Below, piece after piece: positions 7,070 to 57,805 of a stretch of 64,000 nucleotides of DNA. Both the position numbers and the translations under genes were made by a program. The stretch lies in assembly GCA_965249275.1 (NCBI GenBank), contig CBDFLQ010000005.1, positions 608,001 through 672,000 of the forward strand. The letters are read 5' to 3'. The DNA is from Dehalococcoidia bacterium (lineage in GTDB: Bacteria > Chloroflexota > Dehalococcoidia > Plut-88900). Under the pieces are notes generated by a model that worked only from the letters and a program-made list of their open reading frames with translations, was not told where the DNA came from and ran no database searches. Every line of letters starts with the position of its first letter. Within the stretch, counting starts at the first letter, position 1.

Positions 7070-7750
7070 GTGACATAACCCTCTTGACATTATAAGACGT
7101 ATGTTCTATTATTGGGCCAGTCTAGACCCGATACCCACCTTAAGGAGGAACTAAAAACTAGGGAAGCCCACCTGGCCCACCCGAGGACTCAACGTCCAAG
7201 CCCATCCCAAAGGACGGCCCACACGCCGCCCCACGGCACAAGCGAACGCCGCCATCTCCTCATCCCCACCGGGTCCCGTGCCCCCTTCCCTGACCACAAG
7301 GCGATGGAAGACGCCCTGGACCGTACTTGAAAGTCTCCTCACGGAGCAACCTTGTCCTATGGAGCGGAACGGGGCAGCCCGTAGCCGAGGACCGCTCGGC
7401 TCTCCGTCCGCTTCCTCAAATAAAACTGGACTGCCCGCCACTCCCGGCTCCTGGATACAGGCGGCGAACCGGATACCCCGTACTCCTGCGAGGGGAACTG
7501 ACCCTGGACTTTCCCCTTCCTGCATGTCTCGCAGCGCAGCCAACCCTTATTGGAGCCTATGACGGATGACGGACCCGTACGTCCGACCATACTTCCAGGT
7601 CTAGGCGGCGGCGGAGCCCCGTCCCCACGTTCCTGGGACGCCTCCAAGCCCGCATTATCTAAAAATAGGGAGCCGAATCCAGCAAGCGTCTTCCATCGTC
7701 AACCCAAAACCCAACAGACAGAACGCAAACCCAAACCCCACAACTGAAGA
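7070..7750 (+). ncRNA. Putative large ncRNA element, copy A of a three-copy family
   Basis: Promoter 7084-7112 and a leader homologous to copies B and C. Helix 7300-7314/7686-7700 encloses a 371-nt structured segment, followed by a C/A-rich tail. No conserved ORF. Confidence 0.7.
7084..7112 (+). promoter_or_regulatory. Sigma70-type promoter with LexA-box-like site (copy A)
   Basis: TTGACA-N17-TATTAT, with AGAC-GTAT-GTTC at 7095-7106. Confidence 0.65.
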
Positions 7751-7791
7751 AAAGGCCGGTGTGTCACTAACCTACCGAACGAGTACAGCAT

Positions 7792-7820
7792 TTGGACGGA
7801 AGCCACTAGACCGGTATAAT
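7792..7820 (+). promoter_or_regulatory. Promoter of tRNA-Pro
   Basis: TTGGAC-N17-TATAAT ending 22 nt upstream of the tRNA. Confidence 0.6.
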
Positions 7821-7842
7821 GGCCCAGTATCCTCCCTTAGCT

Positions 7843-7919
7843 CGGGGCGTGGCGCAGTCCGGTAGCGCGCATCGTTCGGGACGATGAGGTCCCGGGTTCG
7901 AATCCCGGCGCCCCGACCA
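7843..7919 (+). tRNA. tRNA-Pro (anticodon CGG)
   Basis: Acceptor stem CGGGGCG/CGCCCCG, anticodon arm CATCG-TTCGGGA-CGATG, GGTTCGAATCC T-arm and encoded CCA. Confidence 0.97.
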
Positions 7920-7976
7920 TCCAACTCCTCCCTGTTCCCGGTGGCAGATCCTTTTGGTGCGAAAGGACGAGAGTCG

Positions 7977-9371
7977 ATGGACGAGCTGTTTTATTGGTCC
8001 GCCCAGGCCATGGCCGATGCATTGCATAGGCGAGAGGTCTCGTCTAAAGAGCTGACCGAGGCCCACCTCGCCCGCATAGACGAGGTGAACCCCCTGCTCA
8101 ACGCCGTGGTGCTGGTAGATGCGGAGGGGGCGTTGGCAACGGCTGATGAGCGTGACCGGGAGTCGGCGCGAGGCGAGAGCAGGGGCCCTCTGCATGGCCT
8201 GCCCATCACCATCAAAGACTCGCTGGACACGGTTGGGCTGGTCACGGCGGCCGGGACGGAGGGCAGGTCTGGATTCGTGCCTGATGAGGACGCTACTGTG
8301 GTTGCTCGGCTGAAGGGCACCGGGGCGGTGCTCCTTGGCAAGAGTAACACCCCGGAGATGACCATGATGTGGGAAACCTACAACATGGTCTACGGGCGCA
8401 CGAACAACCCCTACGACCTGTCGAGAAGCCCCAGCGGGAGCAGTGGAGGAGCGGCGGCCATAATCGCAGCGGGGGGATCGCCCCTGGACATGGGCACGGA
8501 CAGCGCGGGCAGCATCCGGATGCCCGCCCACTACTGTGGCATCGCCGGGTTGAAGCCGACCCAGGGGCGGGTGTCCCGGGCAGGTCACGTTCCGCCGCAT
8601 GGGACGGGGGCCGTAGGGCCGCTGAACCAGGTCGGTCCCATGGCACGGTACGTCGACGACCTGTGGCTTGCTCTGCCGGTGATATCGGGAGTCGATGGAC
8701 GAGACCCGGCAATAGTACCGATGCCGCTAAGTGGACCCGACTCAGTGTCGCTGCACGGAATGCGATGCGTGTACTTCACGGGGATCGGAGACGTGCAGCC
8801 GGACAAGGCGACGACGAAATCCGTGGAAAACGCGGCGGCTGTCCTAAGGGAGTCGGGGGTGGACGTTCGAGAGGGTGTGGTCCCGGGCATGGCGAAAGTG
8901 AACGCCCTGTGCGACCGCCTTAGCTCCGCCGACGGTTACTCGTGGCTGCGCCGTCAGCTTGATGCGGCGGGGACGGTGAACGTGGACCCGGTGCTGGTGG
9001 AGCGCATGGGGAAGGCCAAGCCGATTTCTTCGGCGGAGTTGATGGCCTTGCTGGAGGAGATGGACCAGGTCCGGGGAGAAATGCTCGCCTTCATGGATGA
9101 CTATGACCTGGTACTTTCGCCGACGGGCTCCGCTCCGGCCCTGCCTCACGGCGAGGCCAACAGAGATGATTACCCGGACGCCGTCTACACCAGGCCTTAC
9201 AACCTGACGGGATGGCCGGGCTGCGTGGTAAGAGCAGGGGCCTCGCCGGAGGGACTGCCCATCGGGGTGCAGTTGGGTGCGTTGCCTTGGCGCGAGGACA
9301 TCGTTCTGGCTGCCGCAGGGGCCATAGAGTCCGGGCTTGGGGGCTGGCAGCCTCCGGCGCTGCCCCTCTGA
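7977..9371 (+). CDS. Amidase signature family protein
   Basis: GPLHGLPITIKD, GSSGGAAA and GTDSAGSIRMPA. Start at ATG 7977 because the longer ORF overlaps the tRNA. Confidence 0.92.
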   Translation: MDELFYWSAQAMADALHRREVSSKELTEAHLARIDEVNPLLNAVVLVDAEGALATADERDRESARGESRGPLHGLPITIKDSLDTVGLVTAAGTEGRSGFVPDEDATVVARLKGTGAVLLGKSNTPEMTMMWETYNMVYGRTNNPYDLSRSPSGSSGGAAAIIAAGGSPLDMGTDSAGSIRMPAHYCGIAGLKPTQGRVSRAGHVPPHGTGAVGPLNQVGPMARYVDDLWLALPVISGVDGRDPAIVPMPLSGPDSVSLHGMRCVYFTGIGDVQPDKATTKSVENAAAVLRESGVDVREGVVPGMAKVNALCDRLSSADGYSWLRRQLDAAGTVNVDPVLVERMGKAKPISSAELMALLEEMDQVRGEMLAFMDDYDLVLSPTGSAPALPHGEANRDDYPDAVYTRPYNLTGWPGCVVRAGASPEGLPIGVQLGALPWREDIVLAAAGAIESGLGGWQPPALPL

Positions 9372-9458
9372 ATCGCATTTGGGAATCGGGTACTATTCGT
9401 TAACGCGGGTTTCGGGAGGGGCATAGACCTCATCCAGTTCTGTAGAAGGGGGTTTGAC

Positions 9459-10568
9459 ATGGCCAGGAACGGTTTTAAGGTGATGGATTCGGACATGCAC
9501 GTCATCGAGCCTAGCGACCTGTGGCAGAACTATATCGATCCCAAGTTTCGGGACCGGGCCCCGAAGGGGTTCGATCGCTACCTGGGAGACATGCAAGTGC
9601 TGGTGGAGGGGCATCTCCATCCGGCAGACCCGGGCGACAGGGGAAACCAGATCATCGAGGAGAAGGACTTCCACCGGGTCTACGCCGACCCATACTCCAA
9701 CGGCTGGGACTCCGCCTCCCAGGTGAGAGCCATGGATGCCGAGGGGATAGACGTGGCTTTCCTCTATCCCAGCCGCGGCCTCTTTGCCCTGGCCCTCGAC
9801 ACCATGGACCCGGGGCTTGCCGACGCAATAGCCAGGGCCTATACCCGCTGGATGAGCGACTTCTGCGCCCCGGCCTCGCAGCGCATGTGGGGAGCGGCCA
9901 TGATATCCCCCTTCGACGTTGAGTCGGCGGTGGAAGAGGTGCGCCAGTGCGTAGACTCGTTAGGATTCAGAGCAGCGTTCATGCGCCCCAATGTGGTCAA
10001 CGGCCGCAACTGGCACGATCCCTACTACGATCCCCTCTGGCGGGAACTCGAGGCGCGGGACGTGACCATGGGATTCCACGAGGGCGCCACCACCGCTATG
10101 AACCAGATCGGCAACCGCTTCCCGGACTACTCCATGTACCACGTCTGCTGCCACCCGATGGAGATGATGATCAGCGTGGTGGACACCATAGGCGGCGGCG
10201 TGATGGAGCGGTTTCCCAACCTGAGGATAGGTTTCCTGGAGGGCAACTGTTCCTGGCTGCCGTGGCTTCTGTGGCGCATGGACGAGCACGACGAACTCAT
10301 GGGCATGAACCAGGGGACGGAGCTAACCATGACCCCTACGGAGTACTTCAAGCGGCAGGGGTTCGTCTCATTCGAGGCGGACGAGATCACGGGCCGATAT
10401 CTGTCTGAATTCGGTCTCGGGGACGTTGCGGTATTCTCCACCGACTATCCCCACAGCGACTCCAAGTACCCCCACGCCACGGAGGAGTTCCTGGAGATGC
10501 CCCTCAGCGAGGATATGAAAAAGGCCGTGCTATGGGACAACTGCGCCCGGCTCTACAACCTGAACTAA
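9459..10568 (+). CDS. Amidohydrolase family 2 protein
   Basis: DSDMH, GFHEG, FLEGN, STDYPH and DNCARLY motifs. Confidence 0.9.
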   Translation: MARNGFKVMDSDMHVIEPSDLWQNYIDPKFRDRAPKGFDRYLGDMQVLVEGHLHPADPGDRGNQIIEEKDFHRVYADPYSNGWDSASQVRAMDAEGIDVAFLYPSRGLFALALDTMDPGLADAIARAYTRWMSDFCAPASQRMWGAAMISPFDVESAVEEVRQCVDSLGFRAAFMRPNVVNGRNWHDPYYDPLWRELEARDVTMGFHEGATTAMNQIGNRFPDYSMYHVCCHPMEMMISVVDTIGGGVMERFPNLRIGFLEGNCSWLPWLLWRMDEHDELMGMNQGTELTMTPTEYFKRQGFVSFEADEITGRYLSEFGLGDVAVFSTDYPHSDSKYPHATEEFLEMPLSEDMKKAVLWDNCARLYNLN

Positions 10569-10596
10569 ACGTCTCCCACATCTCATTTAAGAGTGA

Positions 10597-10636
10597 ATAC
10601 CCTCGTACTGTCGGCTAGCCGACAGTACGAGGGTAT
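10597..10636. repeat. Perfect 40-bp palindrome between convergent genes (probable bidirectional terminator)
   Basis: ataccctcgtactgtcggct|agccgacagtacgagggtat. Confidence 0.75.
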
Positions 10637-10684
10637 CTCTTCAAGAGGGAAGACGGACGCTCTGGCGGGGAGCTATTGGAACCT

Positions 10685-11737
10685 CTATCCGGTAAGGGGG
10701 TGGGCCATGGGGAGGTTGGGGTGGACTTCCAAGTCCCAGCCGGAGCGTTCGCCGGAGAGCAGGCGGCGGTAGGCGCAGGCGGCGATCATCGCCGCGTTGT
10801 CGGTGCAGAAGATGGGCGGCGGGCAACTCGTATCCACGGGGCTCCCTTCGATCATGGCTGAACGAAGGGCGCCGTTGGCGGCAACCCCTCCCGAGAGGAG
10901 GACACGGCGTACGCCTTCTCGTTTGGCCGCACGGGCTGTCTTCTCTACCAGCACGTCCACCACGGCCTCCTGAAACCCGGCGGCGACGTCGGCTAGCAGG
11001 GGGTCGGGATCGGTTGCATCCACACGGTCGTCGATGCTGTCCACGGCCAGGCCCATCTCCCTGGAGGCCCGTATCACTGCCGTCTTGAGGCCGCTGAAGG
11101 AAAAGTCGTCACTTCCCTTGAGCCAGGCCCTTGGGAAATTCTTGGGTTGACTGCCCTTGCGAGCAACCCGCTCGACGACGGGTCCGCCGGGGTACCCGAG
11201 GCCAAGGACCCGTGCAACCTTGTCAAAAGACTCGCCGGCGGCGTCGTCCCGGGTGCGGCCCAGGAGCAGGTAGTCGCCGTGGTCCCGCATCAAGACGAGG
11301 TCGGTGTGGCCGCCGGAGGCGATGAGGCAGAGGCAGGGAAGCTCGGGGCCCGCGTCCTTCGGGCCTTCCTTGACCAGCCAGTTGGCGTAGACATGACCCT
11401 CCAGGTGATTGACTCCAAGCAGGGGCAGTCCGTGGGCCAGCGCGAGGGCCTTGGCCATGCTCACGCCGATGAGCAGAGAGCCCGCTAGTCCCGGGCCCTT
11501 GGTCACGGCTATTGCGTCGACGTCGTCCCAGCCGATCTCCGCCTGTTCGAGGGCCAAGTCGACTACCGGTACTATTTGAAGCATGTGCTGTCGTGAGGCG
11601 ACCTCCGGTACTACGCCACCGTACCGGGCGTGGATGTCCACCTGGGTTGATATGACGTTGGAGAGGACGAGGGCGCCGTCCTCAACGACGGCGGCTGCGG
11701 TCTCATCGCAGGAGGTCTCTATGCCGAGTACTAGCAT
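10685..11737 (-). CDS. tsaD: tRNA N6-adenosine threonylcarbamoyltransferase
   Basis: [47 protein letters not shown] and TDNAAMI. Confidence 0.96.
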
Positions 11738-11763
11738 GACTGGGGTATTATACCGCCTGCCGG

Positions 11764-13074
11764 TCAAGACGCGGCGGTCAGGGCCACGTGCCTCGGGACA
11801 GCCCGGCCCAGGGGACATTCGGCACACCAGCCATGACGGCATGGCCCCTCTATGAGATGAACGAGGCCCTGCTCCCTGCGGGCCGTCATTGGCACCCCGA
11901 AGGGTCTTCCGATGCCCAGTTGCGCGGACATGTCCTTCAGTTTCCGGTTGCCGGGCCCAGGGGGCGCCAGTTCGAAGAGGAACGATGCCGTTCCTGCCAG
12001 GGCCTCGTCACTCCGTTCGAGCCCGAAGGCGCGGAAGAAGGGGAGAACGACGTTCACAACCATCTCACGGGCGCGCTCGCTGCCTATGGCGGGTGGGGCG
12101 GCGGTCAGGTCTATAAGCAAGCCGGGGTCTTCGTGATGGGCGGCTATGAGAAGCGCTCTTTCGAACCCTTCCACCAGCCCTTCGTCCATGAATCGGGCCA
12201 GCGCATCCCCCGCGCCCAGAATCCTGCGGGAGGGGTGGTTCGCCGGTCTCACGCCGGCAAGCCGCCAGTCCGAGGGCCGCATCTCCCTGGTAAGCAGGCA
12301 CCGGCGCCATATATCTTCAATGTCGGACCCCGCGTCCTGAAGCAGGCCCGCCGTTCCCAGGAGCCAGGCAGCTATGGCCCGAGGTCGCTCCTCATGCGGG
12401 GTTGATGCGGCCAAGGCTTCAACCGTGGACCACGGGAACAGCCGGGCTAGGGCTAGAAAGGGCGCCCGGTTCTTGCTGTAGCCCAGGGCCCGCATCATGC
12501 CCTGGTAGAGGACCTCCGACGGCGGCCAGACGGCCATCTCTCCCTGGAAACGGACGGCCTTGGCTGCGAAGCGTTCGTCTCCCGCCTCGTCCAGGAGCCG
12601 AGCCACCTGCTCGGCGCCCAGCGCCGAGGCTATCTCATCACACCCTTTCAAAGGTGGATTCCCCGTGACTCCATCCCCGGAGTCCGCCTCTGCGGACGTC
12701 TGCAGGCAGCCCTTAAGGGGGGCTGTGGGGACGTGCTCGCCGTCCTCCCGTTCAGTCCAGAGGGAGTCGGCGTCCCAGACCACGTGGAGGACGACGCCGT
12801 TGTAGGCCGGGTCCCGGTGATGGCCATGGGACATCCAGTCCCGGGCGCGAACGTGGATTTCCATGTCTCCCCGGAGCAGACCGCGTCCCTCAACGTCGAC
12901 CGAGGCATCCAGGAAGTCGGGGCCCGCGCCGCCGTTGCGCCGGCCGGGGAAGACGACCTGGGTCCGCGCACCGTCGACGGTGCGGAGCTTTCTCGGGTCG
13001 TAACCGCGCCGGGCCCACACGCCGTATAGAAACTCCTCATCCGGCGGTCTGTGTATGGTGAGGTCACTCTTCAC
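11764..13074 (-). CDS. DUF2851 family protein
   Basis: GPDF, GDMEIH, W..HGHH.DPAYN.VVLHVV, RPANHP and a C-terminal C-x4-C-x2-C. The GTG start overlaps the upstream TGA. Confidence 0.8.
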
Positions 13075-13328
13075 TTGGAGTCTTCGCCCTCCTGGCGACC
13101 CTCGCCGCGGTCTGTGTTGTAGGCGGGGCCGCTTTCCTCGGAGACCATGCGGAGAAGGGTGATGGAAGCGCCCCTCGGAGCGTAGATCCCGGTCTCCCAC
13201 TCGCTGATGGTCTGCTGCCGGACGCCGAGGCGCCGGGCCATCTGCTGCTGGGTCAACCTCATGCGGCTCCTGAGCTCCCTTACGGCGTCGGCGTCCCAGT
13301 TTCGGGAGTAGGGATTTTCTTCGGTCAT
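13071..13328 (-). CDS. XRE-family helix-turn-helix regulator
   Basis: VRELRSRMRLTQQQMARRLGVRQQTISEWETG. Confidence 0.88.
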   Translation of the reverse strand: MTEENPYSRNWDADAVRELRSRMRLTQQQMARRLGVRQQTISEWETGIYAPRGASITLLRMVSEESGPAYNTDRGEGRQEGEDSK

Positions 13329-13627
13329 TGCTTGAGTATACACGGAAACGTGTAAAGCGGCGCTCGACTAATGGCAAGCAGGTGAGAACCCTCGTCTGAA
13401 ATCGGCTGCAGCATTGGAACGGGGAAACCACTTCAAAAGGAGGAGTCGGAAGACGACGTTTAACGGTAAGGCGGTCCAAAGTTGCTCTGACCTCAGCTGC
13501 CATACGGCGGTTGATCAGAGGCGAGCGTTTGACTTGATTTCCGTAACGTGTATAGTATCTTCATCGTACCCAATGGGCGCCAAGGGTGGCGGGGGCCCAC
13601 TTGAAGCTAGAAGAAACACGGTCCGAA

Positions 13628-14242
13628 ATGCAGCATACGCGAAGGCAGATACTCGACTGCATCAAGCTCAATGGCGGCATGAGTGTCGACCAGCTGGGCC
13701 GAAAGCTGCAAATCATGTCCGTCACCGTCAGGGCCCACATCAACGTCATGGAGCGCGGCAACCTGGTCAAGGGCCGGGAGTTGCGTACGGGCCGGGCGGG
13801 TCGCCCACGCATCGTCTACTCCCTCACCGATCAGGCGCAGGAACTCTTCCCGAAGGACTACGACCACCTGGCCGTCAGCCTGATCAGCAATATGCGCAAG
13901 CTTTACGGCAATGACTCCGTGAAAGAGGTGCTGAAGCTGGTTGGGGAGGAGATCGCCGCGTCCAACGCCGATGAGGTGCAGTCGGAAGATCTGGGCGACC
14001 GGATCAAGGGTGCGACCCGGATAATGAACAAGATCGGGTCCCTGGCCACGTGGGAGAAGGGCGAGAACGGGTTCATGGTCACCGCGCACAATTGCCCCTA
14101 TCTGCAAGTGGCAAACGAGTGCGCGGACATATGCGACATGGAGGTCTCTTTCCTGGAGGAAGTCCTGTCACGGGACGTGATGCTTGAATGCTCGGTCGTG
14201 GGTGGGGCTCACAACTGCCAGTTCTTTATCGCAGAACCCTAA
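13628..14242 (+). CDS. SufR-like winged-HTH regulator with a Cys-containing C-terminal domain
   Basis: TRRQIL...VTVRAHI, GRPRIVYSLT, FPKDY and HNCPY...C...C...C. A TTGACT-N16-TATAGT promoter lies upstream. Confidence 0.8.
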   Translation: MQHTRRQILDCIKLNGGMSVDQLGRKLQIMSVTVRAHINVMERGNLVKGRELRTGRAGRPRIVYSLTDQAQELFPKDYDHLAVSLISNMRKLYGNDSVKEVLKLVGEEIAASNADEVQSEDLGDRIKGATRIMNKIGSLATWEKGENGFMVTAHNCPYLQVANECADICDMEVSFLEEVLSRDVMLECSVVGGAHNCQFFIAEP

Positions 14243-14280
14243 CAAGAATATATCCGGCTTAGATTGGGACGGACGTTTTG

Positions 14281-14304
14281 AAGCCCCTACCGGCAGGGGC
14301 TTTT
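14281..14304 (+). terminator. Intrinsic terminator-like hairpin
   Basis: aagcccct-accggc-aggggctt followed by Ts. Confidence 0.55.
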
Positions 14305-14361
14305 CCTATGACTCCCGCACAACGACACGAAGGCTACCGACTGTAGGAAGAGGATACCCAG

Positions 14362-14673: not shown

Positions 14674-14710
14674 CCCGCTCGGAGCGCTGGCGGCTTCTTC
14701 GTGCCCGATC

Positions 14711-16398: not shown

Positions 16399-16424
16399 CT
16401 TTCGCTATCCAGGTGAAACGGGGT

Positions 16425-36104: not shown

Positions 36105-36792
36105 GGGATATTGAGTTGTAGCAAGGATTTGTGGGTTCATGTCTGTTCTGGAAGGGCAGGCGATGGAAGGTCCGGGACTAGAAACCAGGCCGTGGGTTGC
36201 TGCCGAGCCGTCGGCGCCGGGCTGGATTATCCCCACATGTTGTCGGCTGCGGTCAGGGTTGTGTGGGGCAGATCCCTCCGTGAGCGGCACTTGACCGGAC
36301 CGCTGACGGGGAAGATGCCGCCTTAGGCGGACTTTCATAACCGGCGTCCCGGTGCATCCGCCGGATAGACGGATGGCAGGGACGGCGGGACAAACAAGGC
36401 ACGAGGGCCTTGCTAAACCGGGGGTCGGTTGACCTACCGGGAAAACCGGCGCGCAATGGGCCGGGGTAAACGCACCCGATGATGGGGGGCGTTGAATCGG
36501 CAGGGGCGTCGTTGGACGGGGCCTGCCGAGCATAGTCTGTGGATCTTCCATCGCCTGGGTTGCGGGGGAAGGTGAGCCGAGGCCTTTGGTATGAGGAGAT
36601 GGCGGCTTTCGCTTGAGCCGAGGGGCGGCGCTTGGGCCGCCCTTTGGGATGGGCTGGGACGTTGAGTCCTCGGGGCCGGGGATGGGCTTCCCCCTGGGTT
36701 GTGGTTCCTCCTTAGGGTTTAGGGTGAGTGACGAGCTAGTCGGGGGTGAATATAGTACAAGTGTTTTGCTTTAGTCAAGGGGTTCGTGTCAC
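36105..36792 (-). ncRNA. Putative large ncRNA element, copy B (with a possible 3' extension to about 35855)
   Basis: Promoter 36749-36778 and conserved leader. Helix 36541-36557/36157-36173 encloses a 367-nt structured segment. Tail motif AACAGACA-GAAC is shared with copy A. Confidence 0.7.
36749..36778 (-). promoter_or_regulatory. Sigma70-type promoter with LexA-box-like site (copy B)
   Basis: TTGACT-N18-TATATT, with AAAC-ACTT-GTAC at 36755-36766. Confidence 0.55.
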
Positions 36793-36809
36793 TTTTTGCC
36801 AAGTGGGAT

Positions 36810-37151
36810 CACCCTCACCCTAGCCCTCTCCCATCAGAGGGAGAGGGGACAGGACGCCCCGCCCTCTCCGCCTCCGGGGATGGATTCCGGCTCGGCGGGG
36901 GGTGCGCCTTCAGGAGGGATGGGTTCCTGCCTCCGCAGGAATGACGGGGGAGTGGGGGGTGGGTGGGTGGGAGGCGATCACGTGGTACTGCTCCTATGCG
37001 GGCACCCCCCCGCTCATACTTCGAGAGCCTCCCGCCTCGGCGGATCTTCGACAGCACGATCGGGCCCGCCCGGGCCGTGGATTCGCGCCTGAGGCGTACC
37101 CTCCAGAGGCGAGTGGGGCACTTGCAGCCCGATCGGAGTCTGGAATGACGG
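36810..37151. repeat. Mosaic cluster of short palindromic REP/boxC-like repeats
   Basis: caccctcaccctagccctctccc..gggagagggga, ggattc..ggaatgacgg units and a cttcga..ctc/ag..cgg unit. Confidence 0.75.
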
Positions 37152-49853: not shown

Positions 49854-50015
49854 AGTGTCTCCCCCAGTTGGCGTCATGTTAGCTTGATATGCATAGCCTG
49901 TCCACACGGAATCCCTATTACCCATTTACATCTATTTCTTTGGTATAATCCCCACTCGATGGACATTCCCCGTAATAAGCTAGTTTCCGGAAGGAAAGGG
50001 GAGAATATACCTGTT

Positions 50016-51086
50016 ATGAGCAAATACAAAGTGCTTTTAGGAATTCTGGGACTTGCCCTTGTGTTGGCAGTTGCAGTCGCTTGTGGCGGCGGGGACTCTG
50101 AGACGACGTCGGGTGAAAGGCTTGCCGCGGTGCAGGACCGGGGCAATGTGATATGCGCGAGCAGGAACGACGTGCCCGGATACGGGTACCTTGACGAGGC
50201 CGGAAACAACGTTGGATTCGACATAGACCTGTGCCGGGCCTTAGCGGCGGCGGTCCTGGGCGATCCCAACGCATTCGAGATCCGGCTGATAACCGCGGCG
50301 GAACGGGGCCCGACGATCCAGTCCGGCGAAGTGGACATGCTCGTGCGGACCGTTACCTGGACCACCTCCCGTGACGCTAGCTGGGGTAACTACGTTCAGA
50401 CGATGTTCTACGACGGCCAGGGGTTCATGGTCCCGAAGGCCTTGGGAATCTCAAGCGCCCTGGAGCTCAAGGACACAAGTGTTTGCGTGACGCAGGGTAC
50501 TACTACGGAGTTGAACCTTCAGGACTTCTCCAACCAGAACAACCTGAACATTACTCCTCTTACCTTTGAGGACACCGACGCTGTCCTAGCCGCCTACGAG
50601 AACGGTCAATGTGATTCCTTTACAAATGACAACTCTCAGTTGGCCGCGCTGGGCACGGCATTGTCGGACCGGGACGCTCACACAATTCTCCCTGAGACTA
50701 TCTCGGAAGAGCCCCTAGGGCCTGTTGTTCCTCACGGCGATGACCAATGGTTCGACATTGTAAAGACCGTCATGGGCATCCTGATCTACTCCGAAGCCTA
50801 CGGCGTAGATTCCGGCAACGTGCCCACCGCGATCACGGGCGACACCAAGGTTGACCGACTGTTTGGTCTGGAGGGATCCTTCGGACAGGACGTACTGGGC
50901 CTCAAGAAAACGGCAGCCCAGGACGTGATTAGATCTGTTGGAAACTACGGCGAGATTTACGAACGCAATTTGGGACCTGGCGGGATAAACCTGCCGAGGG
51001 AGAACGGACGAAACGCACTTTGGGCCGACGCCCCGTGCACGGATTGCCCAAAGGGAGGTCAGATCTACGCAGCGCCGCTGCGTTAG
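50016..51086 (+). CDS. aapJ: General L-amino acid ABC transporter substrate-binding lipoprotein
   Basis: GFDIDLCRA, TWTTSRD, FYDGQG, GTTTELN, ISEEPLGP and VGNYGEIYERN. Start at ATG 50016. Confidence 0.88.
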   Translation: MSKYKVLLGILGLALVLAVAVACGGGDSETTSGERLAAVQDRGNVICASRNDVPGYGYLDEAGNNVGFDIDLCRALAAAVLGDPNAFEIRLITAAERGPTIQSGEVDMLVRTVTWTTSRDASWGNYVQTMFYDGQGFMVPKALGISSALELKDTSVCVTQGTTTELNLQDFSNQNNLNITPLTFEDTDAVLAAYENGQCDSFTNDNSQLAALGTALSDRDAHTILPETISEEPLGPVVPHGDDQWFDIVKTVMGILIYSEAYGVDSGNVPTAITGDTKVDRLFGLEGSFGQDVLGLKKTAAQDVIRSVGNYGEIYERNLGPGGINLPRENGRNALWADAPCTDCPKGGQIYAAPLR

Positions 51087-51116
51087 TGCCCCACTGGACT
51101 TAAACTGAAGCTATCA

Positions 51117-51149
51117 GAGGGGCGGCCAAGCAAATGCTGGCCGCCCCTC
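51117..51149 (+). terminator. Intercistronic hairpin after the substrate-binding protein gene
   Basis: gaggggcggcca...tggccgcccctc. Confidence 0.6.
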
Positions 51150-51224
51150 ACTGCATTTAGGCATGCACAAGTTATGGGTTTGCAATAGAATCGGCCTGAC
51201 ACCGGGCCCGCTAATTGGCAGAAT

Positions 51225-52424
51225 TTGATTACATCACGGCTTCCTAACATCACTTATAAGGGCATACCGGTCTGGCGGCACGCCCAGGTAATCCAGTGGG
51301 TCGCACAGATCGTTTCGGGGATCCTGGTGGTTGTCCTGGTCGTATGGTTCTTTGCGAATATAGCGAACGCGATACGGGACCGGGACATACCTTTTGGCTT
51401 TGGATTTCTGGGACGGGCGTACCAGACTCCCATAGGTCAGCATTTCCTGCCTTTTGAGTCGTCTGATTCGTTCCTCTATGCGATGGTTGTTGGGGCGACG
51501 AATACGATTTTCGTCTCGGTGATAGGGGTAATTGCGGCGACGGCGCTTGGGGTATTCATTGGCGTGTCTCGCCTATCCGGCAACTGGCTGGTATCGAAAA
51601 TCGCCCTGGTCTATATCGAATTCTTCCGCAACGTGCCGCTTCTGATTCAGCTTTTCTTCTGGTTTTACATAGTGTTGGCGTTGCCACCCGTGAGAGAGGG
51701 TTATGTTATAGCCGACCGGTTGTACTTGAACAATGCTGGGGTGTCCGTACCCATTCCAACCGGGGACGGGGTAGCTCAGGGACTGATTTGGCTAGTATCT
51801 GCGGCTGTGGCCATAGCTGTGGGCGTGCTGGCGCACAAAGCAATGGCCAGGCGGGAAGAACAGACAGGGTCAACGTCCTATCCAATTTTGACAGGTGTGG
51901 GTTCTACCGTTCTGGTTGGCCTTGTTGGGTGGTTCATCATCACGGCGATAAACGGAGGATTCCCACTTACCATTACGACGCCGGCTCCGCATGGGACTTT
52001 TGGGAGGCTAGAGGGTGGCTTCGAACTATCGGGTGGACTGATGGCCTTGCTGCTCGGACTGGTGATGTACACTGCGGCATTCATTGCAGAGATCGTGAGG
52101 GCGGGGATACAGTCGGTGGGGAAGGGGCAGACGGAGGCTTCACGGTCCTTGGGACTATCGGGGATGGGGACTATAAGAAGCGTAACCTTTCCCCAAGCTC
52201 TCCGAGTCATTGTGCCTCCGACCATCAGCCAGTATTTGAATCTGACTAAGAACAGCAGCCTTGCGGCGGCGATCGGCTACAGCGAACTCACGAACGTGGC
52301 CAAGACGATGACGCAGACGGCGCCTGCGGTGTCGATATTCATATTGGTGATGGCGGCCTATCTTGCCATGAGCTTGACCTACTCTCTGATAGGGAACTTC
52401 TATAACCGGCGGATAGCCTTTTGA
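51225..52424 (+). CDS. aapQ: Amino acid ABC transporter permease
   Basis: RNVPLL, AFIAEIVRAGI, PQALR and LTKNSSL. Confidence 0.85.
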   Translation: MITSRLPNITYKGIPVWRHAQVIQWVAQIVSGILVVVLVVWFFANIANAIRDRDIPFGFGFLGRAYQTPIGQHFLPFESSDSFLYAMVVGATNTIFVSVIGVIAATALGVFIGVSRLSGNWLVSKIALVYIEFFRNVPLLIQLFFWFYIVLALPPVREGYVIADRLYLNNAGVSVPIPTGDGVAQGLIWLVSAAVAIAVGVLAHKAMARREEQTGSTSYPILTGVGSTVLVGLVGWFIITAINGGFPLTITTPAPHGTFGRLEGGFELSGGLMALLLGLVMYTAAFIAEIVRAGIQSVGKGQTEASRSLGLSGMGTIRSVTFPQALRVIVPPTISQYLNLTKNSSLAAAIGYSELTNVAKTMTQTAPAVSIFILVMAAYLAMSLTYSLIGNFYNRRIAF

Positions 52425-52451
52425 AGAAGACGTGTGACATAAAGCAGCGAG

Positions 52452-53702
52452 ATGGCAACGAACTCTAATTTAGGTGGTCCGCCGTCTCTGCCTCCGCCTC
52501 TATTGAATAGAGGGGTGGTGGGATGGGCGCGCGAAAACCTCTTCAGCGCGTGGTACCACGCGCTGTTGACAGTAGTGACCGCCTGCCTGGTGCTCACAGG
52601 CCTATGGTATGGGCTGGGCTGGATCTTGCTGGATGCACAGTGGGGAGTGATACCGACCCTAGGGGGGCGGCTCGTCATCGGCCCGTACAACATCGAAGCG
52701 GCGTGTGAAGGGCAAAACTGCTTCTGGAGACCTCAGGCCGGCCTAATGCTGGTCATGATGCTGGCCGGGTTGGCATGGGCAACTGCAGGAGGAGGACTGA
52801 CGAAGCGAATCGTAATCATTGTGACTACCGCGCTGGTGGTATTCGCGTTCTTGCCTTATAACCTGGACCGGTTGGACCTCGATGTCCGGTTGCTTCTCCT
52901 GGCCAATGTGCCTGCAGTGGCAATCGGGTGGGCACTGGGTCGGTACACGCGTCTGGGGACATCGAAGGGAATCATCTTACTCGGCATTGCCTTCTTCGCG
53001 CTCATCCTGATTCTGTTCCGAGGAGTGCCGGGCATACCGGGGCTTCAGCCTGTCTCTGTAATCTATTGGGGCGGAATGATGCTGAACCTGCTGCTTGCGG
53101 TGGTGGGTATAGTGTTCAGTTTTCCGATAGGGATAGCGCTGGCGCTGGGTCGGCGGTCGAAGCTACCCGTGGTAAAGATTATCTGCGTGGCGTTCATAGA
53201 GGTTTTTCGGGGCGTGCCGCTAATAACGCTGTTGTTCATGTCGCAGGTGCTGGTGCCGTTGGCCTTCCCCCAGGACTTTCCTGTAAACAGCCTATTGCGT
53301 GCCGCTATTATCATTACGTTGTTCAGTTCGGCTTACACTGCCGAGAACATACGGGGCGGACTACAGGCACTGCACCCAGGCCAGGCGGAAGCGGCGAGGG
53401 CGTTGGGCCTTGCAAGCTGGCAGACGATGATTTCCATTTCCCTGCCACAGGCCATCCGGAACGTGATACCTGCGATTGTCGGGCAGTTCATCGCCCTGTT
53501 CAAGGACACGACACTGGTCACGATAATAGGGATGTTAGACATACTGGAGTTCAGCAGGGCGTTCATACAGGGGAACCCGCAATACTTATCAAACCAAAAA
53601 GAGCTGTTTGTATTCCTAGCCTTCTCATTTTGGATATTCACATTCGGGATGTCCTACGTTAGCCGCCATGTCGAACGGCATCTAGGCGTGGGAGAGAATT
53701 AG
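52452..53702 (+). CDS. aapM: Amino acid ABC transporter permease
   Basis: W.RENLF, LALGRRS, RGVPLI, AENIRGGL and FKDT. Confidence 0.85.
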   Translation: MATNSNLGGPPSLPPPLLNRGVVGWARENLFSAWYHALLTVVTACLVLTGLWYGLGWILLDAQWGVIPTLGGRLVIGPYNIEAACEGQNCFWRPQAGLMLVMMLAGLAWATAGGGLTKRIVIIVTTALVVFAFLPYNLDRLDLDVRLLLLANVPAVAIGWALGRYTRLGTSKGIILLGIAFFALILILFRGVPGIPGLQPVSVIYWGGMMLNLLLAVVGIVFSFPIGIALALGRRSKLPVVKIICVAFIEVFRGVPLITLLFMSQVLVPLAFPQDFPVNSLLRAAIIITLFSSAYTAENIRGGLQALHPGQAEAARALGLASWQTMISISLPQAIRNVIPAIVGQFIALFKDTTLVTIIGMLDILEFSRAFIQGNPQYLSNQKELFVFLAFSFWIFTFGMSYVSRHVERHLGVGEN

Positions 53703-53726
53703 GCGAGAGATAGTCGAGGGTTGGAT

Positions 53727-54485
53727 ATGACTTCCACAGAAAGCAAGAACAGCTCCGAGGACATAATCATCTGCCGAGACGTGCATAAGTGGTACGGGGA
53801 GTTCCACGCGCTACGGGGGGTGACGACGACGATCAAGAAAGGGGAGGTTGTGGTGGTGTTCGGGCCATCGGGGTCAGGGAAATCGACGTTCATCCGCACA
53901 ATCAACAGGCTGGAGGAGCATCAAAGGGGACAGATAATAGTCGACGGCATTGAGATGTCGGACGACGTGCGTAATATCGACGCCATTCGCCGGGACGTGG
54001 GGATGGTGTTCCAGTCTTTCAACCTGTTTCCGCACCTGACAATCATGCAGAACATAACCCTGGCCCCGACTAAAGTTCGAAAGTTACCGGCGTCGGAGGC
54101 GGAAAAGATCGCGATGGAGCTGTTGGAGAGGGTCGGGATCCCGGACCAGGCAGACAAGTACCCCAAGGAGTTATCTGGAGGGCAGCAGCAGCGGGTGGCG
54201 ATAGCTCGGGCCCTGGCTATGAAGCCGAACATCATGCTGTTCGACGAGCCGACGTCGGCGCTGGACCCGGAGATGATCAAGGAAGTGCTTGACGTGATGA
54301 AGGAGCTGGCGGAGTCGGGGATGACGATGATTGTCGTGTCCCACGAAATGGGCTTTGCGCGAGAGGTGGCGAACCGGATGATGATGTTCGACGAGGGGAT
54401 GATCGTGGAGGAAGGGACGCCACATCAAATCTTCGAAGATCCGCAGAGCGACCGGACTAAGCTTTTCTTGTCGCAGATTCTCTAG
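53727..54485 (+). CDS. aapP: Amino acid ABC transporter ATPase
   Basis: [17 protein letters not shown] and [11 protein letters not shown]. Confidence 0.9.
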
Positions 54486-54542
54486 CAGCTTCAATCTGTC
54501 CTATAATAAACAGGTGTACGCTGACCGCAGGAGCATCTTGTC

Positions 54543-54830
54543 GTGACCCAAGCCGAACCTAGAGTATGGACTGTAACTGAGGCCAAAGCCCGTCTGTCGG
54601 AGATCCTGCGCCTTTCCGAAGAGGAGGGGCCGCAACGTATTGGGACGCGGAAGTCCTTCGTAGTTGTTCCCGAGAGTGTATGGCAGGGTCACGATTCTCC
54701 TCCCAAGGCTGACGCCTTGCCGCGCAAGCCTCTTGGACAGTGGCTTGTTGAAAACCTGCCTTGCGGGGTCGAACTCGAACTTCCTAACCGTAAGGAAACT
54801 GGCCGGCCGATTCCCTTTGTAGACTACTAA
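54543..54830 (+). CDS. Phd/YefM-type antitoxin
   Basis: WTVTEAKARLSEIL...GPQRI, translationally coupled (TAATG) to a PIN toxin. Confidence 0.85.
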   Translation: MTQAEPRVWTVTEAKARLSEILRLSEEEGPQRIGTRKSFVVVPESVWQGHDSPPKADALPRKPLGQWLVENLPCGVELELPNRKETGRPIPFVDY

Positions 54831-55249
54831 TGAGCGGATACCTCCTGGACACAAATGTTGTGTCTGAGGTGATACGAGTTGTTCCGAACCCTAGTGTGTA
54901 CACATTTTTCGTTGAGCAAGACGACCTATGGCTATCATCCGTTGTCATCCACGAACTTGAGTATGGAGTGCAGCGCTTGGCGGAGGGTCGGCGGAGGACA
55001 GATCTGCGTGCAAATCTATCTCATCTGACAACCGAATACGGAAATCGGATCTTGACATTGGATCGCGATGGGGCGGAATTGGCAGCGAGATTTAGGGTGG
55101 ATTCTGAGCGATCCGGCTACGCCCTCGGCTTGGCGGATGCGTTGATTGCCGGCATTGCCAAGGCCAACGACCTGATAGTCGCAACCAGAAATGTGTCTGA
55201 TTTCCGATCGATCGACATCGAAGTCTTCAATCCTTGGGAGACTTCTTAG
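54830..55249 (+). CDS. vapC: PIN-domain VapC toxin
   Basis: YLLDTNVVSE, ELEYG, DALIA and TRNVSDF. Confidence 0.92.
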   Translation: MSGYLLDTNVVSEVIRVVPNPSVYTFFVEQDDLWLSSVVIHELEYGVQRLAEGRRRTDLRANLSHLTTEYGNRILTLDRDGAELAARFRVDSERSGYALGLADALIAGIAKANDLIVATRNVSDFRSIDIEVFNPWETS

Positions 55250-56285
55250 TCAGCCTCGCTCTTGCTAGCCGAGCTCCTTCCACCATAGCCCTCAATTTAC
55301 TCCTGGCTGATGAGCCGCTTATTGGAACGAGCCCGCAGTCGGGGGCGGCTTTCAGTTTTTCTGCGGGATGGCACTCGGCCGCTTCCAGGAGTCGGTTGGC
55401 TATTCGATCCGCATCTTCCACCTCTTCCGACGTGTTGGTTATGCACCCGAAGAGCACCGTCTTCGATGGGCACAGAGCCAGGAGATCCACGGAGAGAAAC
55501 GGGGCCTCGAATTCCAGGGCTAGCTGATTTATTGAAGAGCGCTCGAGGGCCGGGAGGATAGTCGGGTAGCTAGGCACTATGGGGCGGGGGACTCCGGGAA
55601 GGGGGTAGCTGTAGCACACGTGCACTGCGGTTTGAGCGTTCACCCCGTGTGCTGACCTGTCCAGGGCCTCGATACCCCAGGCAAGGACTTTATCCGGGTA
55701 TCGGCTGAAGACAGGTTCGTCGAACTGGATCACCGATGCGCCCTCCAACGCCAGGGCTTTCGCCTCCATGTGCAGTGCATCAGCGACGGCTATAGCCATG
55801 GATTCTTCGTTGCCGTAGAACTCGTCGAGGATGGAATCGCAGACGGTCATCGGGCCGGGGAGGGTTACCTTGACTGGTGTGCGAGAGTGTTTAATCGTGA
55901 AGCGCAGGTCATCGACCAGCATGGGGCCCGGCCAGGTGACGGGGCCGGTGCATCGGCCCACCTGGGCCAAGCGTCTGCCGCCTCTTACCCACTTCTCCCC
56001 AAATGTTTCGTAGTCGAACCCGTTTAGCCTTCGCACCACGTAGCTCAGGTAGGACTCGCGTCTCTGCTCGCCGTCGGTTATCTCGTCAAGACTGGCTGAC
56101 TCTTGCATCCCGATGGCAAGCCTAACGGCGTCGTCATGCGCCTCCCGAAGCTCTTTCCCAGAATAGGCCCACGTACCACCCTTTCCGTGCAGCCCTTTCA
56201 CTTCCGTAGAAAAGCCGGAAGAATCATAAAGCCAAGGCGGTTTAGGAAGGCTGCCAATGACAGTGGTCTGAAAGGGGATACTCAT
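55227..56285 (-). CDS. Cobalamin-independent methionine synthase II family (single-domain) protein
   Basis: IGSLPKP, TDGEQRR, QFDEP, HVC, LEF and APDCG Zn ligands. Confidence 0.85.
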   Translation of the reverse strand: MSIPFQTTVIGSLPKPPWLYDSSGFSTEVKGLHGKGGTWAYSGKELREAHDDAVRLAIGMQESASLDEITDGEQRRESYLSYVVRRLNGFDYETFGEKWVRGGRRLAQVGRCTGPVTWPGPMLVDDLRFTIKHSRTPVKVTLPGPMTVCDSILDEFYGNEESMAIAVADALHMEAKALALEGASVIQFDEPVFSRYPDKVLAWGIEALDRSAHGVNAQTAVHVCYSYPLPGVPRPIVPSYPTILPALERSSINQLALEFEAPFLSVDLLALCPSKTVLFGCITNTSEEVEDADRIANRLLEAAECHPAEKLKAAPDCGLVPISGSSARSKLRAMVEGARLARARLTKKSPKD

Positions 56286-56369
56286 GCCGGCGAATATATC
56301 ACAGGGACGCAGTGGACCGGGCCTGCTTTGCCGGAGGGGACGAGGCTATAATTTGGGCGGAGACACGTA

Positions 56370-57083
56370 ATGAGAGACAAGGACGAAATACGGAAGGACG
56401 TTTGGCAGTCGATGAGGGACGCCGGTGTTGCTGCGTTTCCGGGGGCTGTGGGTCGGATACCAAACTTCACGGGCTCGGGGCGAGCACATCTGCAGCTTGC
56501 CGAGTTGGATGTGTGGAAGAACGCCCAGGTGATCAAGTCGAACCCCGACCTGCCGCAGAGGCCACTGAGAAGGCTCGCTCTGGAGCAGGGTAAGACCGTC
56601 TACATGGCCGTGCCCCGGCTCACGCAGGAAAAATGCTTTGTTGAGCTGGACCCGGCGCGTATCAGTGACTACCGGTTGGCGAGCAGCATCAAGGGCGCAG
56701 CACAGCTGGGCAGGTTGGTACACCCTGACGAGATGCGACCAATTGACCTGATTGTCTGCGGGTCGGTGGCGGTGAACAGGGAAGGGGCTCGGTTGGGGAA
56801 GGGAGGCGGGTTTTCGGACCTTGAATACGCTGTTGCCCTGACCCTCGGCCTGATATCTAAGAGTACGCCGATAGTCACTACCGTTCATCCTGTACAGCTT
56901 TTGTCGGAAGAGCTGCCCATGACTCCACACGACATATCTCTCGACTATATTGGCACGCCGGAGGAGTTGGTACGCTGTGATGGGGAGTTCCACAGACCCT
57001 TGGGGATCATTTGGGAGGACCTCGGAGAGAAACTGGACGAGGTGCCCATTCTTCAGGCACTGCGGGCAAGGGAGTTCAGGTAG
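56370..57083 (+). CDS. 5-formyltetrahydrofolate cyclo-ligase family protein
   Basis: GRIPNF, NPD.PQ, VPRL, GSVAV...GARLGKGGGFSDLEY and TTVH. Confidence 0.85.
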   Translation: MRDKDEIRKDVWQSMRDAGVAAFPGAVGRIPNFTGSGRAHLQLAELDVWKNAQVIKSNPDLPQRPLRRLALEQGKTVYMAVPRLTQEKCFVELDPARISDYRLASSIKGAAQLGRLVHPDEMRPIDLIVCGSVAVNREGARLGKGGGFSDLEYAVALTLGLISKSTPIVTTVHPVQLLSEELPMTPHDISLDYIGTPEELVRCDGEFHRPLGIIWEDLGEKLDEVPILQALRAREFR

Positions 57084-57157
57084 TCTGCCTACGTCGCCCC
57101 TACGGGCTTGGGGTTATTAAGTCCTCCTGAGGCGGACCCTCCAAAGGCGGATGTTCC

Positions 57158-57805
57158 ATCTTCGATTGGGGTTTGGGGGTTTGGTTTGGTTGTTGGGGGG
57201 TAGGCGATGGAAGGTCCGAGACTCGTGTGCGGGGAGGCGGGAGGCCAGCCTGCGATGACCCCACGTGTCTCTTAGCTAGGCGGACGAGGTGAGTGGGGTG
57301 TTCTCGTCCACAAGACGCTTGGCTCGACCATTCGGAGGAATGGGAGCACGAACCCGCTGCCGTCGTCTACCGAACGGAACTCTCGGATGGTGACGACGGT
57401 GGAGTCCCATAAGGGCTCGATGGCCCTTAGCAAGCCCTGCATAGGCGGGCTGTTATATTTCGCTGGGCTATGCGCATAGCGTTGACTCGAACACTCCGGG
57501 TGAATGGTGCGTCGAGTAGGCTGGTCCCGCACGCCTACATGTTGCTTAGAGTTGATGGACCTTCCATCGCCTGATGGTTGGGGGGGGGTGAGCCGGGGCC
57601 TTTAGGTGAGGAGATGGCGGCTTTCGCTTGAGCCTGGGAGCGGCTAACGCCGCTCTTTGGGATGGGCTGGGACGTTGAGTCCTCGGGGGCCGGGGATGGT
57701 GTTCCCCCTGGGTTGTGGTTCCTCCTTGGCCTTGGGGTGGGTAACTGGCCAGTCGGGGGTGAATATAGTACATGTGTTTTGCTTTGGTCAAGGGGTTCGT
57801 GTCAC
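57158..57805 (-). ncRNA. Putative large ncRNA element, copy C
   Basis: Promoter 57762-57791 and conserved leader. A perfect 16-bp helix 57557-57572/57202-57217 encloses a 339-nt structured segment, followed by a C/A-rich tail. Confidence 0.7.
57762..57791 (-). promoter_or_regulatory. Sigma70-type promoter with LexA-box-like site (copy C)
   Basis: TTGACC-N18-TATATT, with AAAC-ACAT-GTAC at 57768-57779. Confidence 0.55.

Follow-up and report, generated by a model that had tools for sequence, protein, structure and literature searches.

Three intergenic loci within a single stretch of a Dehalococcoidia genome share one architecture, and they raise the question of whether they are host RNA genes, leaders of host genes, or copies of something mobile. 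The stretch, hereafter the window, is 64,000 nt long (contig CBDFLQ010000005.1 of assembly GCA_965249275.1, positions 608,001 to 672,000), and the loci are copy A on the forward strand, copy B (36107..36811, -), and copy C (57114..57824, -). An initial annotation, made from the letters alone, had described them as independently transcribed RNAs of ~600 nt with a constant scaffold around a variable structured cargo, and had suggested a regulatory or guide RNA family, a reverse-transcriptase template, or a non-autonomous mobile element that captures cargo. The motifs that it listed lie where it placed them in all three copies, and a sigma-70-like promoter heads each one. We consider it probable, at roughly 0.6, that the loci belong to a genus-specific non-autonomous transposable element of 0.74 to 0.9 kb, which carries its own promoter and a ~600-nt noncoding RNA and abuts host promoters. 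The reading as a new family of large RNAs, with transcription predicted, stands.

A family of 55 copies confined to one genus

The genome in question (G000; 2.9 Mb in 7 contigs, 87% complete) was compared with sister species of the same genus, labeled G001 to G008. Searching G000 with the leader (nhmmer) returned 68 matches, 57 of which span at least 150 nt of the leader; both arms of a closing helix, spaced 288 to 520 nt apart, are present in 55 of the 57. We count these as 55 complete copies, which bears out the prediction of many more copies, and the promoter-like arrangement CTTGAC ... TAYTAT is visible at their heads. The copies are 75 to 90% identical, and their combinations of promoter and middle are mosaic. 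Contig C4 (9145 bp) repeats the Lgt locus of C7:584543-587307, element and GCGGA duplication alike; a strain variant or an assembly duplicate is its probable origin, and so it does not represent an independent insertion.

DNA searches found the family in all eight other species of the genus, with many copies in each, and in none of 32 genomes from outside the genus. The 5' domain was also cast as a covariance model (R1; 127 positions, trained on 26 diverse copies), which matches five of five genus genomes; the 146 other genomes of the class that were searched with it, spanning 110 further genera, gave no match. By these searches, the family is genus-specific. Among the 80 loci listed from an exact-motif scan over 185,579 genomes, one per species, 79 fall in six chromosomes of Dehalococcoidia metagenome-assembled genomes (MAGs). 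The remaining one, in a Spirochaetales MAG, lacks the 5' arm and was taken as a chance match. At Rfam gathering thresholds, the sole match in the whole window is tRNA-Pro, and Rfam 15 applied to copy A at E<=10 gave four chance-level matches, all far under threshold and the best of them a microRNA model at E 0.81. This agrees with the earlier statement that no known RNA class has this layout.

Complete copies bear the marks of transposition

Copies that retain both ends have TG...CA termini (TGATCC...GAGTACA), 5-bp target-site duplications, and, at three loci, precise empty sites in sister species. They measure 739 to 902 bp. A 27-nt right-end module, GTGTCACTAAYCTACCGAACGAGTACA, terminates 25 of the 55 copies; a search of G000 with it gave 25 matches, 24 at elements and the 25th ~240 nt from one. 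The left end, TGATCCCGTTCACATAGAGGGGTGACA, starts ~20 copies; the parts of it that agree with the reverse complement of the right end are TG, CGTTC, and GTGACA. Evidence for duplications is limited to copies with both ends. Among 18 left/right end pairs in G000 (three of which are mis-paired neighbors and two a single locus on a duplicate contig), the flanking 5-mers agree perfectly (5/5) in 10 and at 4/5 positions in 2, and a shifted control reaches at most 3/5. Across the genus, 30 both-ended elements, several of them orthologous loci, show agreement of 5/5 in 13, 4/5 in 10, 3/5 in 3, and 2/5 in 4.

Copy A illustrates the arrangement. Its left end (7049..7075, +), an imperfect inverted repeat of the right end, follows a GCATT at 7044..7048 (+), and its right end, GTGTCACTAACCTACCGAACGAGTACA (7761..7787, +), precedes a second GCATT at 7788..7792 (+). 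The full unit is 7049-7787, bounded by the duplicated GCATT, and so is a little longer than the 7070-7750 of the initial annotation. The element occupies this locus in G000, in G002 (flanks 98% identical), and in G005, and G003 has a precise empty site, ...GGCATT|TGGACGG..., with a single GCATT; the element is also missing there in G001 and G008. At the locus C6_178161, G005 has a precise empty site, and G003 is without the element too, with the promoter intact. At C2_8075, both G003 and G001 have a precise empty site. The comparison of orthologous loci that the annotation had proposed yielded three loci, copy A included, in which the empty site has the 5-mer only once and its promoter is intact.

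The other two copies in the window also vary between species. Copy B is present in G002, diverged in G001, and absent in G005 and G003; copy C is present in G002 and, with a different middle, in G005, and absent in G003, G001, and G008. Other repeats obscure the boundaries of both. The TGATCC found upstream of B and C is at least in part a piece of a separate repeat, GGGTGAGGGTGATCC, which G001 has at the C locus, where it lacks the element. Copies without the right-end module stop a few bases after ...CTGAATAA or ...CTCAATATC.

Among the explanations first offered, the non-autonomous mobile element is thus upheld by target-site duplications and empty sites; its captured cargo is not, since the middles appear to be diverged homologues, as described below. 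[quoted passage not shown] Because complete copies measure 739 to 902 bp, "mobile insertion cassette" or [quoted passage not shown] fits better than MITE.

Insertion at the upstream edge of host promoters

Insertion occurs precisely at the upstream edge of a resident -35 hexamer and is oriented with the promoter. Collapsing 47 right-end junctions leaves 36 distinct sites, at which the bases just past the 5-bp duplication are T in 33, T in 28, G in 32, A in 23, and C in 26, with TAnnnT 16 to 19 nt beyond TTGAC. The right end of the element abuts the -35 hexamer of a sigma-70-type promoter, the duplicated 5-mer alone lying between them, and this promoter runs in the same direction as P1, the element's own. 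In empty sites the promoters read TTGGAC-17-TATAAT (tRNA-Pro), TTGACC...TATAGAAT, and TTTAGR...TAAAAT or TAGAAT. Since they stand unchanged there, they are resident and were not imported by the element. At the copy A locus, the insertion directly abuts the host promoter of tRNA-Pro (TGGACG-16-TATAAT; 7793..7820, +), which the empty sites in G003 and G001 retain without change, and the tRNA-Pro gene itself (CGG) follows at 7843..7919 (+).

The orientation of neighboring genes, which were called with a simple codon-usage caller, is consistent with this placement. Of the 55 copies, 45 have a co-oriented downstream gene (binomial p = 2e-6), as do 24 of the 25 with the right end; the upstream gene is divergent in 38 of 55 (p = 0.006), and 10 of 55, copy C among them, face a convergent gene. 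The downstream genes span many unrelated Pfam families, and they include seven Amidohydro_2 proteins, three luciferase-like monooxygenases, LeuRS, a class-I Glu/Gln tRNA synthetase, GyrB, UvrA, Lgt, peptide deformylase, fumarase, and a tRNA. Functional relatedness among downstream genes, as a cis-regulatory leader would lead one to expect, is lacking across the 55 copies, and the earlier remark that these are not leaders of a common gene holds for the whole family.

A predicted large noncoding RNA

P1, a near-consensus sigma-70-type promoter, is predicted to drive a noncoding RNA gene of ~600 nt with four parts: a 5' domain of ~180 nt, a multi-branched middle of 288 to 520 nt, a closing helix formed by 11-nt arms, and a C/A-rich unpaired tail. 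In copy A, P1 (TTGACA-17-TATTAT; 7084..7112, +) matches the consensus at 11 of 12 positions and is followed by the conserved 5' domain (7120..7299, +), to which the genus-restricted model R1 corresponds. This domain contains the palindrome GTCTAGAC at the predicted start (7120-7127, +), then AAGGAGGAAC (7142-7151, +) and the cores GAGGACTCAACG..GCCCATCCCAAAG (7183-7212, +) and CAAGCGAA.GCCGCCATCTCCTCA (7239-7262, +). The 5' arm GGCGATGGAAG (7300..7310, +) and the 3' arm CTTCCATCGTC (7690..7700, +) enclose a middle (7311..7689, +) that is densely base-paired in the predicted fold, and the tail (7701..7760, +) is G-poor and unpaired in it. In copies B and C, both on the reverse strand, a consensus scan for sigma-70-like promoters places P1 at 36778-36749 and 57791-57762. 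The 5' arm, middle, and 3' arm lie at 36545-36555, 36170-36544, and 36159-36169 in B and at 57561-57571, 57214-57560, and 57203-57213 in C. The 3' arm of all three is the complement of GGCGATGGAAG, CTTCCATCG(C/T)C, and stands 339 to 379 nt beyond the 5' arm. Neither B nor C has the right-end module; the tail of B ends in CTCAATATC (36107-36115), and that of C holds two small hairpin modules and ends in CTTAATAA (57114-57121).

The region is noncoding, with no conserved ORF (open reading frame), as first proposed. Most of the distinct indels have lengths not divisible by 3 (16 of 21 and 16 of 23, for example, are 1 mod 3), and column entropy has no consistent three-base period. ORFs of at least 40 amino acids number 298 in the 55 elements, on both strands, a frequency expected at 59% G+C, and they are shared only by descent within subfamilies.

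Predicted transcripts fold more stably than shuffled sequence, with z-scores of -2.83 for A (20 shuffles), -4.95 for B (20), and -6.93 for C (100). For each of the three, a helix of 15 to 16 bp made of the extended arms is predicted to close the multi-branched middle, the tail is left unpaired, and the arms are paired in both the minimum-free-energy and the centroid structures. Beyond the invariant 11-nt arms, the helix reads GACGC/GCGUC in one superfamily of middles and GGUCC/GGACC in the other, with three compensated positions. RNAalifold structures for the six largest subfamilies contain 43 to 115 pairs, of which 95 to 99% are canonical versus 27 to 57% when the partner column is slid; each subfamily has compensatory double changes at 3 to 9 pairs, and the canonical share among variable pairs beats all 200 column shuffles in six of six subfamilies. 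We regard the covariation in the middles as modest.

The 5' domain has 46 invariant columns among 26 diverse copies. A variable hairpin within it covaries by eye (GAGCGGC/GCCGCTC versus GGGCGGC/GCCGCCC) and takes large inserts in some species. In distant sister species, an insert of ~45 to 60 nt with GTAGGGGCGACCGGCCAATCGCCCC replaces this hairpin (loci L118, L119, L137, L140, L146, L147, L149, L153, L156, L167, L176, and L180), and the GTAGGGGCGACCGGCCAATCGCCCC repeat recurs elsewhere in those genomes.

The middles, which the initial annotation took for captured cargo that could not be aligned, do align within subfamilies. BLAST sorts the 55 middles into nine subfamilies (13, 11, 10, 6, 5, 5, 2, 2, and 1 members), every match being on the same strand, and adding 75 copies from sister species gives 12 clusters, the largest with 25, 20, 19, 18, and 16 members, in which the same subfamilies recur across species. 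Profile searches, with profiles built after trimming 25 nt off either end, join the subfamilies into two superfamilies, {1,2,4,5,7} and {0,3,6,8}, at E-values of 1e-5 to 1e-31. Copies A, B, and C could not be aligned at first because their middles come from three different subfamilies (1, in superfamily I, for A; 3 and 0, both in superfamily II, for B and C). The middles are diverged homologues in two superfamilies, not foreign cargo.

Promoter type and middle subfamily are freely combined, and many copies have other variants of the promoter region, a pattern suggestive of recombination among copies. Three orthologous loci (A and C in G005; C2_8075 in G005 and G002) carry a middle of a different subfamily, and their flanks, leader, and tail diverge only as much as the surrounding genes. 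This could result from a swap of middles through the conserved arms and flanks or from repeated insertion at the same promoter; on the sequence comparison, we favor exchange.

A short palindrome stands at the predicted transcription start of every copy (in B, GACTAGCTCGTC at 36730-36741). Its sequence varies with promoter type (GTCTAGAC, GTTCGAAC, GATTGGCCAATC, and GGCTGGCCAGCC), and palindromy is kept. Several of these palindromes are too short for RNA hairpins, and we suspect that they are operator sites to which a dimeric protein binds.

Expression and termination

Sixteen sequencing runs contain part of window positions 6000-9000, and nine of them are recorded as RNA. Contigs of four RNA-labeled runs from four studies (one of which is only guessed to be RNA) were placed on 5000-10000 at 90% likeness and cover 7171-7700 in all four. 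Summed word depth in bins over 7171-7671 is 238/15/9 in run X1, 10/7/11 in X2, 16/21/8 in X3, and 121/146/42 in X6; depth over the flanking genes is 0 to 33 and mostly below 10, and the bin 7004-7170 is uncovered. Several contigs begin near 7299 and finish near 7693-7698, which are the positions of the arms. These breaks coincide with the points at which paralogues diverge, so they are most simply assembly breaks, and we draw no conclusion from them about RNA ends. One contig from X2, the run only guessed to be RNA, crosses the right end into the flank of another locus, and read-through is not certain from it.

No intrinsic terminator follows the RNA on the element strand in A, B, or C. The first 55 nt of the tail average 41% C, 10% G, and 40% A over the 55 copies. 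RNase III is present, and Rho occurs in eight of eight sister genomes. From the missing terminator, the C-rich tail, Rho in the sister species, and RNase III, we infer that Rho may end the transcript and that RNase III possibly cuts it.

Candidate transposases

The genome holds 22 matches to the rve domain, in three groups, plus an IS5-type element; boundaries of insertion sequences were taken from BLAST. One resident rve element of 1056 bp, in ~11 copies (C6:65042-66097 and 10 more), has the ends TGTAAG.../...CTACA, that is, TGTA...TACA, and makes 5-bp duplications (ATTCC or GGAAT). The right end of the RNA element and the end of this rve element have 19 of 28 positions in common, a score that 9 of 500 shuffles equal. 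The likeness to IS481/IS3-type elements in ends and duplication length is a weak match, and we suggest from it that an IS481/IS3-type DDE (rve) enzyme may mobilize the element in trans. A left-end search across G000 found elements, one solo end upstream of groES, and otherwise weak matches only. Three end pairs that might have marked a larger element, of 4081 bp (at C5:712489), 1199 bp, and 1029 bp, proved to be mis-paired neighboring ends.

The target of the 1056-bp rve element is a hairpin repeat, GTCATTCC…GGAATC, which occurs in the window at 36920-36945 and 57960-57995. A second repeat, CCCCTCTCCC…GGGAGAGGGCTAGGGTGAGGGTGA (window 36811-36850), is found immediately upstream of copy B, as of many other copies, and an IS481-family element of ~1335 bp, present in 8 copies (C5:115252-116585 and 7 others), inserts into it.

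Proposed mechanism and alternatives

We propose that a DDE (rve) transposase of the IS481/IS3 kind would move the element in trans, and that recombination through conserved flanks would swap middle domains between copies. P1 would give rise to the RNA, which RNase III may cut at its long closing helix and which Rho would end in the C-rich tail, so that the downstream host promoter keeps working. We take the RNA to be a payload that serves the element, through expression, stability, or mobility, and not a host regulator.

Several results weigh against this reading. The right end is missing in 30 of 55 copies here and in 83 of 130 across the genus, B and C included, and target duplications at B and C were looked for and none was seen. 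The left end agrees with the reverse complement of the right end at 17 of 28 positions, a score equaled by 57 of 500 shuffles. The resident rve element has a different target, ATTCC in a hairpin repeat and not promoters, and no autonomous partner with matching ends was found in G000, the complete sister genomes not having been searched. Abutment to -35 boxes could partly reflect selection after insertion in place of target choice. The controls on base pairing are lenient, as related sequences are compared and the structures were derived from the tested alignments. For the 5' domain, the consensus fold is weak from 55 copies and has 10 pairs, none compensated, from 128; we therefore claim no structure there beyond single hairpins seen by eye. 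The read depth is compatible with strong transcription; its contigs lack strand and ends, and the leader depth (up to 238) may be due to copy number alone, as it sums ~55 paralogues and DNA is possible in the libraries. The RNA-binding domain of Rho was not found in G000, a miss that we put down to the genome being 87% complete.

A bolder version of the proposal is that of a transposon that finds sigma-70 promoters, achieving base-pair-exact, oriented integration at the -35 edge by a new mechanism, and we advance it tentatively, as a possibility that we rather doubt. The guide would be either a transposase that recognizes the -35 motif or RNA polymerase bound at the promoter, or else the structured RNA of the element, abundant and acting as an adaptor between transposase and transcription machinery. 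The element would then be a prokaryotic counterpart of promoter targeting in the style of Ty3 and Tf1, with a new-class ~600-nt RNA with exchangeable middles as its payload.

The strongest competitor to the proposed element is a mobile promoter or leader cassette, in which P1 reads through into the host gene and insertions are kept for their cis effect on expression, the gene thereby gaining an additional promoter, a strong one, and a long 5' leader that is processed. The prevailing co-orientation of downstream genes (45/55, and 24/25 with the right end), the insertion of right-end copies just upstream of a resident promoter, and the terminator-free stretch from P1 to the host gene would all suit such a cassette, and the Neisseria Correia elements supply a precedent, with promoters, positions immediately upstream of genes, and RNase III cuts (PMC10969869). 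We nevertheless think it unlikely. The genes downstream have no common theme, ranging from a tRNA, aminoacyl-tRNA synthetases, GyrB, and UvrA to many amidohydrolases; promoter function needs far less than a conserved structured RNA of 600 nt with two cross-species superfamilies; the C-rich, G-poor tail resembles a Rho loading site that would block read-through; and 10 of the 55 copies, copy C included, face a convergent gene. It is quite unlikely, in our judgment, that the RNA is itself the selected unit, as a host family of multi-copy, trans-acting regulatory or structural RNAs of which only some copies are moved by a transposase. Such a family would account for the 30 copies without right end and duplication, for the strong conservation of the 5' domain across the genus, and for the retention of the same middle subfamilies by several species, and both a second family with another leader and two protein-coding genes use the same promoter type (described below). 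Yet presence varies between species at all five loci compared, the family is restricted to one genus, no target or partner is known, and ~55 copies at 75 to 90% identity in mosaic combinations suit a proliferating element better.

Two further explanations carry little weight beside these. Internal deletion of insertion sequences often yields non-autonomous elements, and the "RNA" might on that account be a dead transposase gene, or more generally a decayed protein gene or full insertion sequence; AAGGAGG near the 5' end resembles a ribosome-binding site, and ORFs of at least 40 amino acids are common on both strands. This is very improbable: tblastn of four resident transposases against the elements gave flank matches only, save one antisense match at E=0.03; the indels and the lack of codon periodicity speak against a reading frame; none of A, B, and C has a start codon after AAGGAGGAAC; and the folds of all three are more stable than those of shuffled sequence. 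We give next to no credence to a retron-like template or primer RNA for a reverse transcriptase, with the arms as a1/a2, an idea of the initial annotation that arose from the helix enclosing a structured segment, which is found in 55 of 55 copies. RVT_1 has no match anywhere in G000 (87% complete), no reverse-transcriptase gene lies among the genes downstream of the 55 copies, and 5-bp duplications with DNA-level ends indicate DDE transposition. Retron RNAs are, moreover, far smaller than 600 nt.

Relation to known systems and significance

Correia elements are ~100 to 155 bp long and duplicate TA. These Neisseria MITEs (CREE/NEMIS) resemble the present family in being non-autonomous, present in many copies, mostly directly upstream of genes, and equipped with promoters, and RNase III cuts their transcripts at the helix that the element forms (PMC10969869). 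The Correia helix consists of the terminal inverted repeats themselves, whereas the closing helix here is internal, and the present element differs further in its size of 0.74 to 0.9 kb, its 5-bp duplications, its dedicated structured RNA of ~600 nt, and its abutment to the -35 hexamer to the base. Small RNAs borne on MITEs in Coxiella are the next-closest comparator (PMC10969869). In Pseudomonas putida, ssr9 on ISPpu9 (IS110 family) is an RNA gene without a transposase, a selfish module moved by an insertion-sequence enzyme, that is found together with the transposase gene as well as separately from it (PMC12288879). The enzyme in that case is of the DEDD type, the targets are repetitive extragenic palindromic (REP) sequences, and copies are few; here we see signs of DDE/rve, ~55 copies, a far larger RNA, and a target at the promoter edge. 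Insertion sequences of the IS481/IS3 type share with the present element the TG...CA termini and short target duplications of fixed length, and they differ from it in that it encodes no transposase and that the resident ones insert in hairpin repeats.

For placement, there are eukaryotic parallels. Yeast Ty3 integrates within a few bases of RNA polymerase III start sites and Tf1 at RNA polymerase II promoters, sparing coding sequence. Those are long-terminal-repeat retroelements guided by transcription factors, in contrast to a bacterial DNA element at the edge of a sigma-70-type -35 hexamer. Among large bacterial RNAs, OLE, GOLLD, ROOL, HEARO, and raiA are several hundred nucleotides long and strongly structured, and some are tied to mobile DNA or tRNA genes; to our knowledge, none of these classes is a transposon payload with target duplications. 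The present family thus departs from known RNA-payload elements in its size, in the complexity and modularity of its RNA, and in its base-precise, oriented placement at -35. In the open-access literature, at the level of titles and abstracts, we found no description of a -35-edge target rule or of a transposon-borne RNA of this size.

If our reading holds, ~1.3% of the genome consists of one element family (55 x ~0.7 kb in 2.9 Mb), which places a strong promoter and a large folded RNA before the promoters of tRNA, aminoacyl-tRNA synthetase, gyrB, and uvrA genes and likely shapes gene expression across a genus of uncultured Dehalococcoidia. A new class of large structured RNA with a constant 5' domain and two superfamilies of swapped middles would be a natural system for the study of modular RNA evolution. 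Base-precise, oriented insertion at the -35 edge would be directly testable and a possible "safe-harbor" principle of integration; a new promoter-targeting mechanism, if true, would raise the importance of the family considerably.

Neighboring repeats and related sequences

The solo left end mentioned above lies at C6:928812 (-), is followed by CTTGCG (-35-like) and TTAAAAT, and stands directly upstream of the CIRCE operator and groES-groEL, with no RNA part. It is either a remnant of the element or an instance of the end sequence acting as a promoter-upstream site.

Upstream of copy C, at 57835-57925, is a piece of ~90 nt with a long hairpin, ACGACATATCAGCCATGTTGC…GCAACATGGCTGATATGTC, and then AATAAAACAGGGCGGGTGGGCGGGACTCAATATATCCC. 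The same piece is found ahead of at least five other copies and, judged by position, seems to be the end of the IS5-type element (DDE_Tnp_1 plus DUF772, ~10 identical copies). The final bases of the piece are similar to those with which the short-form RNA element ends at its 3' side, …ACTCAATATCCC.

A hairpin module of ~15 nt, TCCGCCTNNGGAGGA, occurs one to three times in tails, often after GGAACA (57125-57165 in copy C), and also sits in the 5'-domain loop of some copies (L075, L082, L093, and others). It looks like a tiny mobile or duplication-prone unit.

G000 also contains a second family with the same alpha-type promoter and another leader, …TAATAAGGAAAGGAC.AAGGAGTCCCATGAGTCGCAC…CACTACAAGCGCTGCC, at C7:453315, C6:946487, C5:735584, C5:156942, C7:724367, C6:128755, C6:841641, C6:222323, and C5:272102. 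Its members have an ATG after AAGGAG and one hairpin with a compensatory change (GCGG/CCGC versus GTGG/CCAC). Two copies of the main family (C6_141632+ and C5_169201-) are hybrids in which the leader of the second family is joined to the arms of the main one. Finally, two paralogous protein-coding genes, at C5:2115 (-) and C7:110674 (+), stand under the same promoter type, AAAAAGTGACACG.ACC.ATTGAC…TATTCTATATT, each with an ordinary ribosome-binding site and an ATG.

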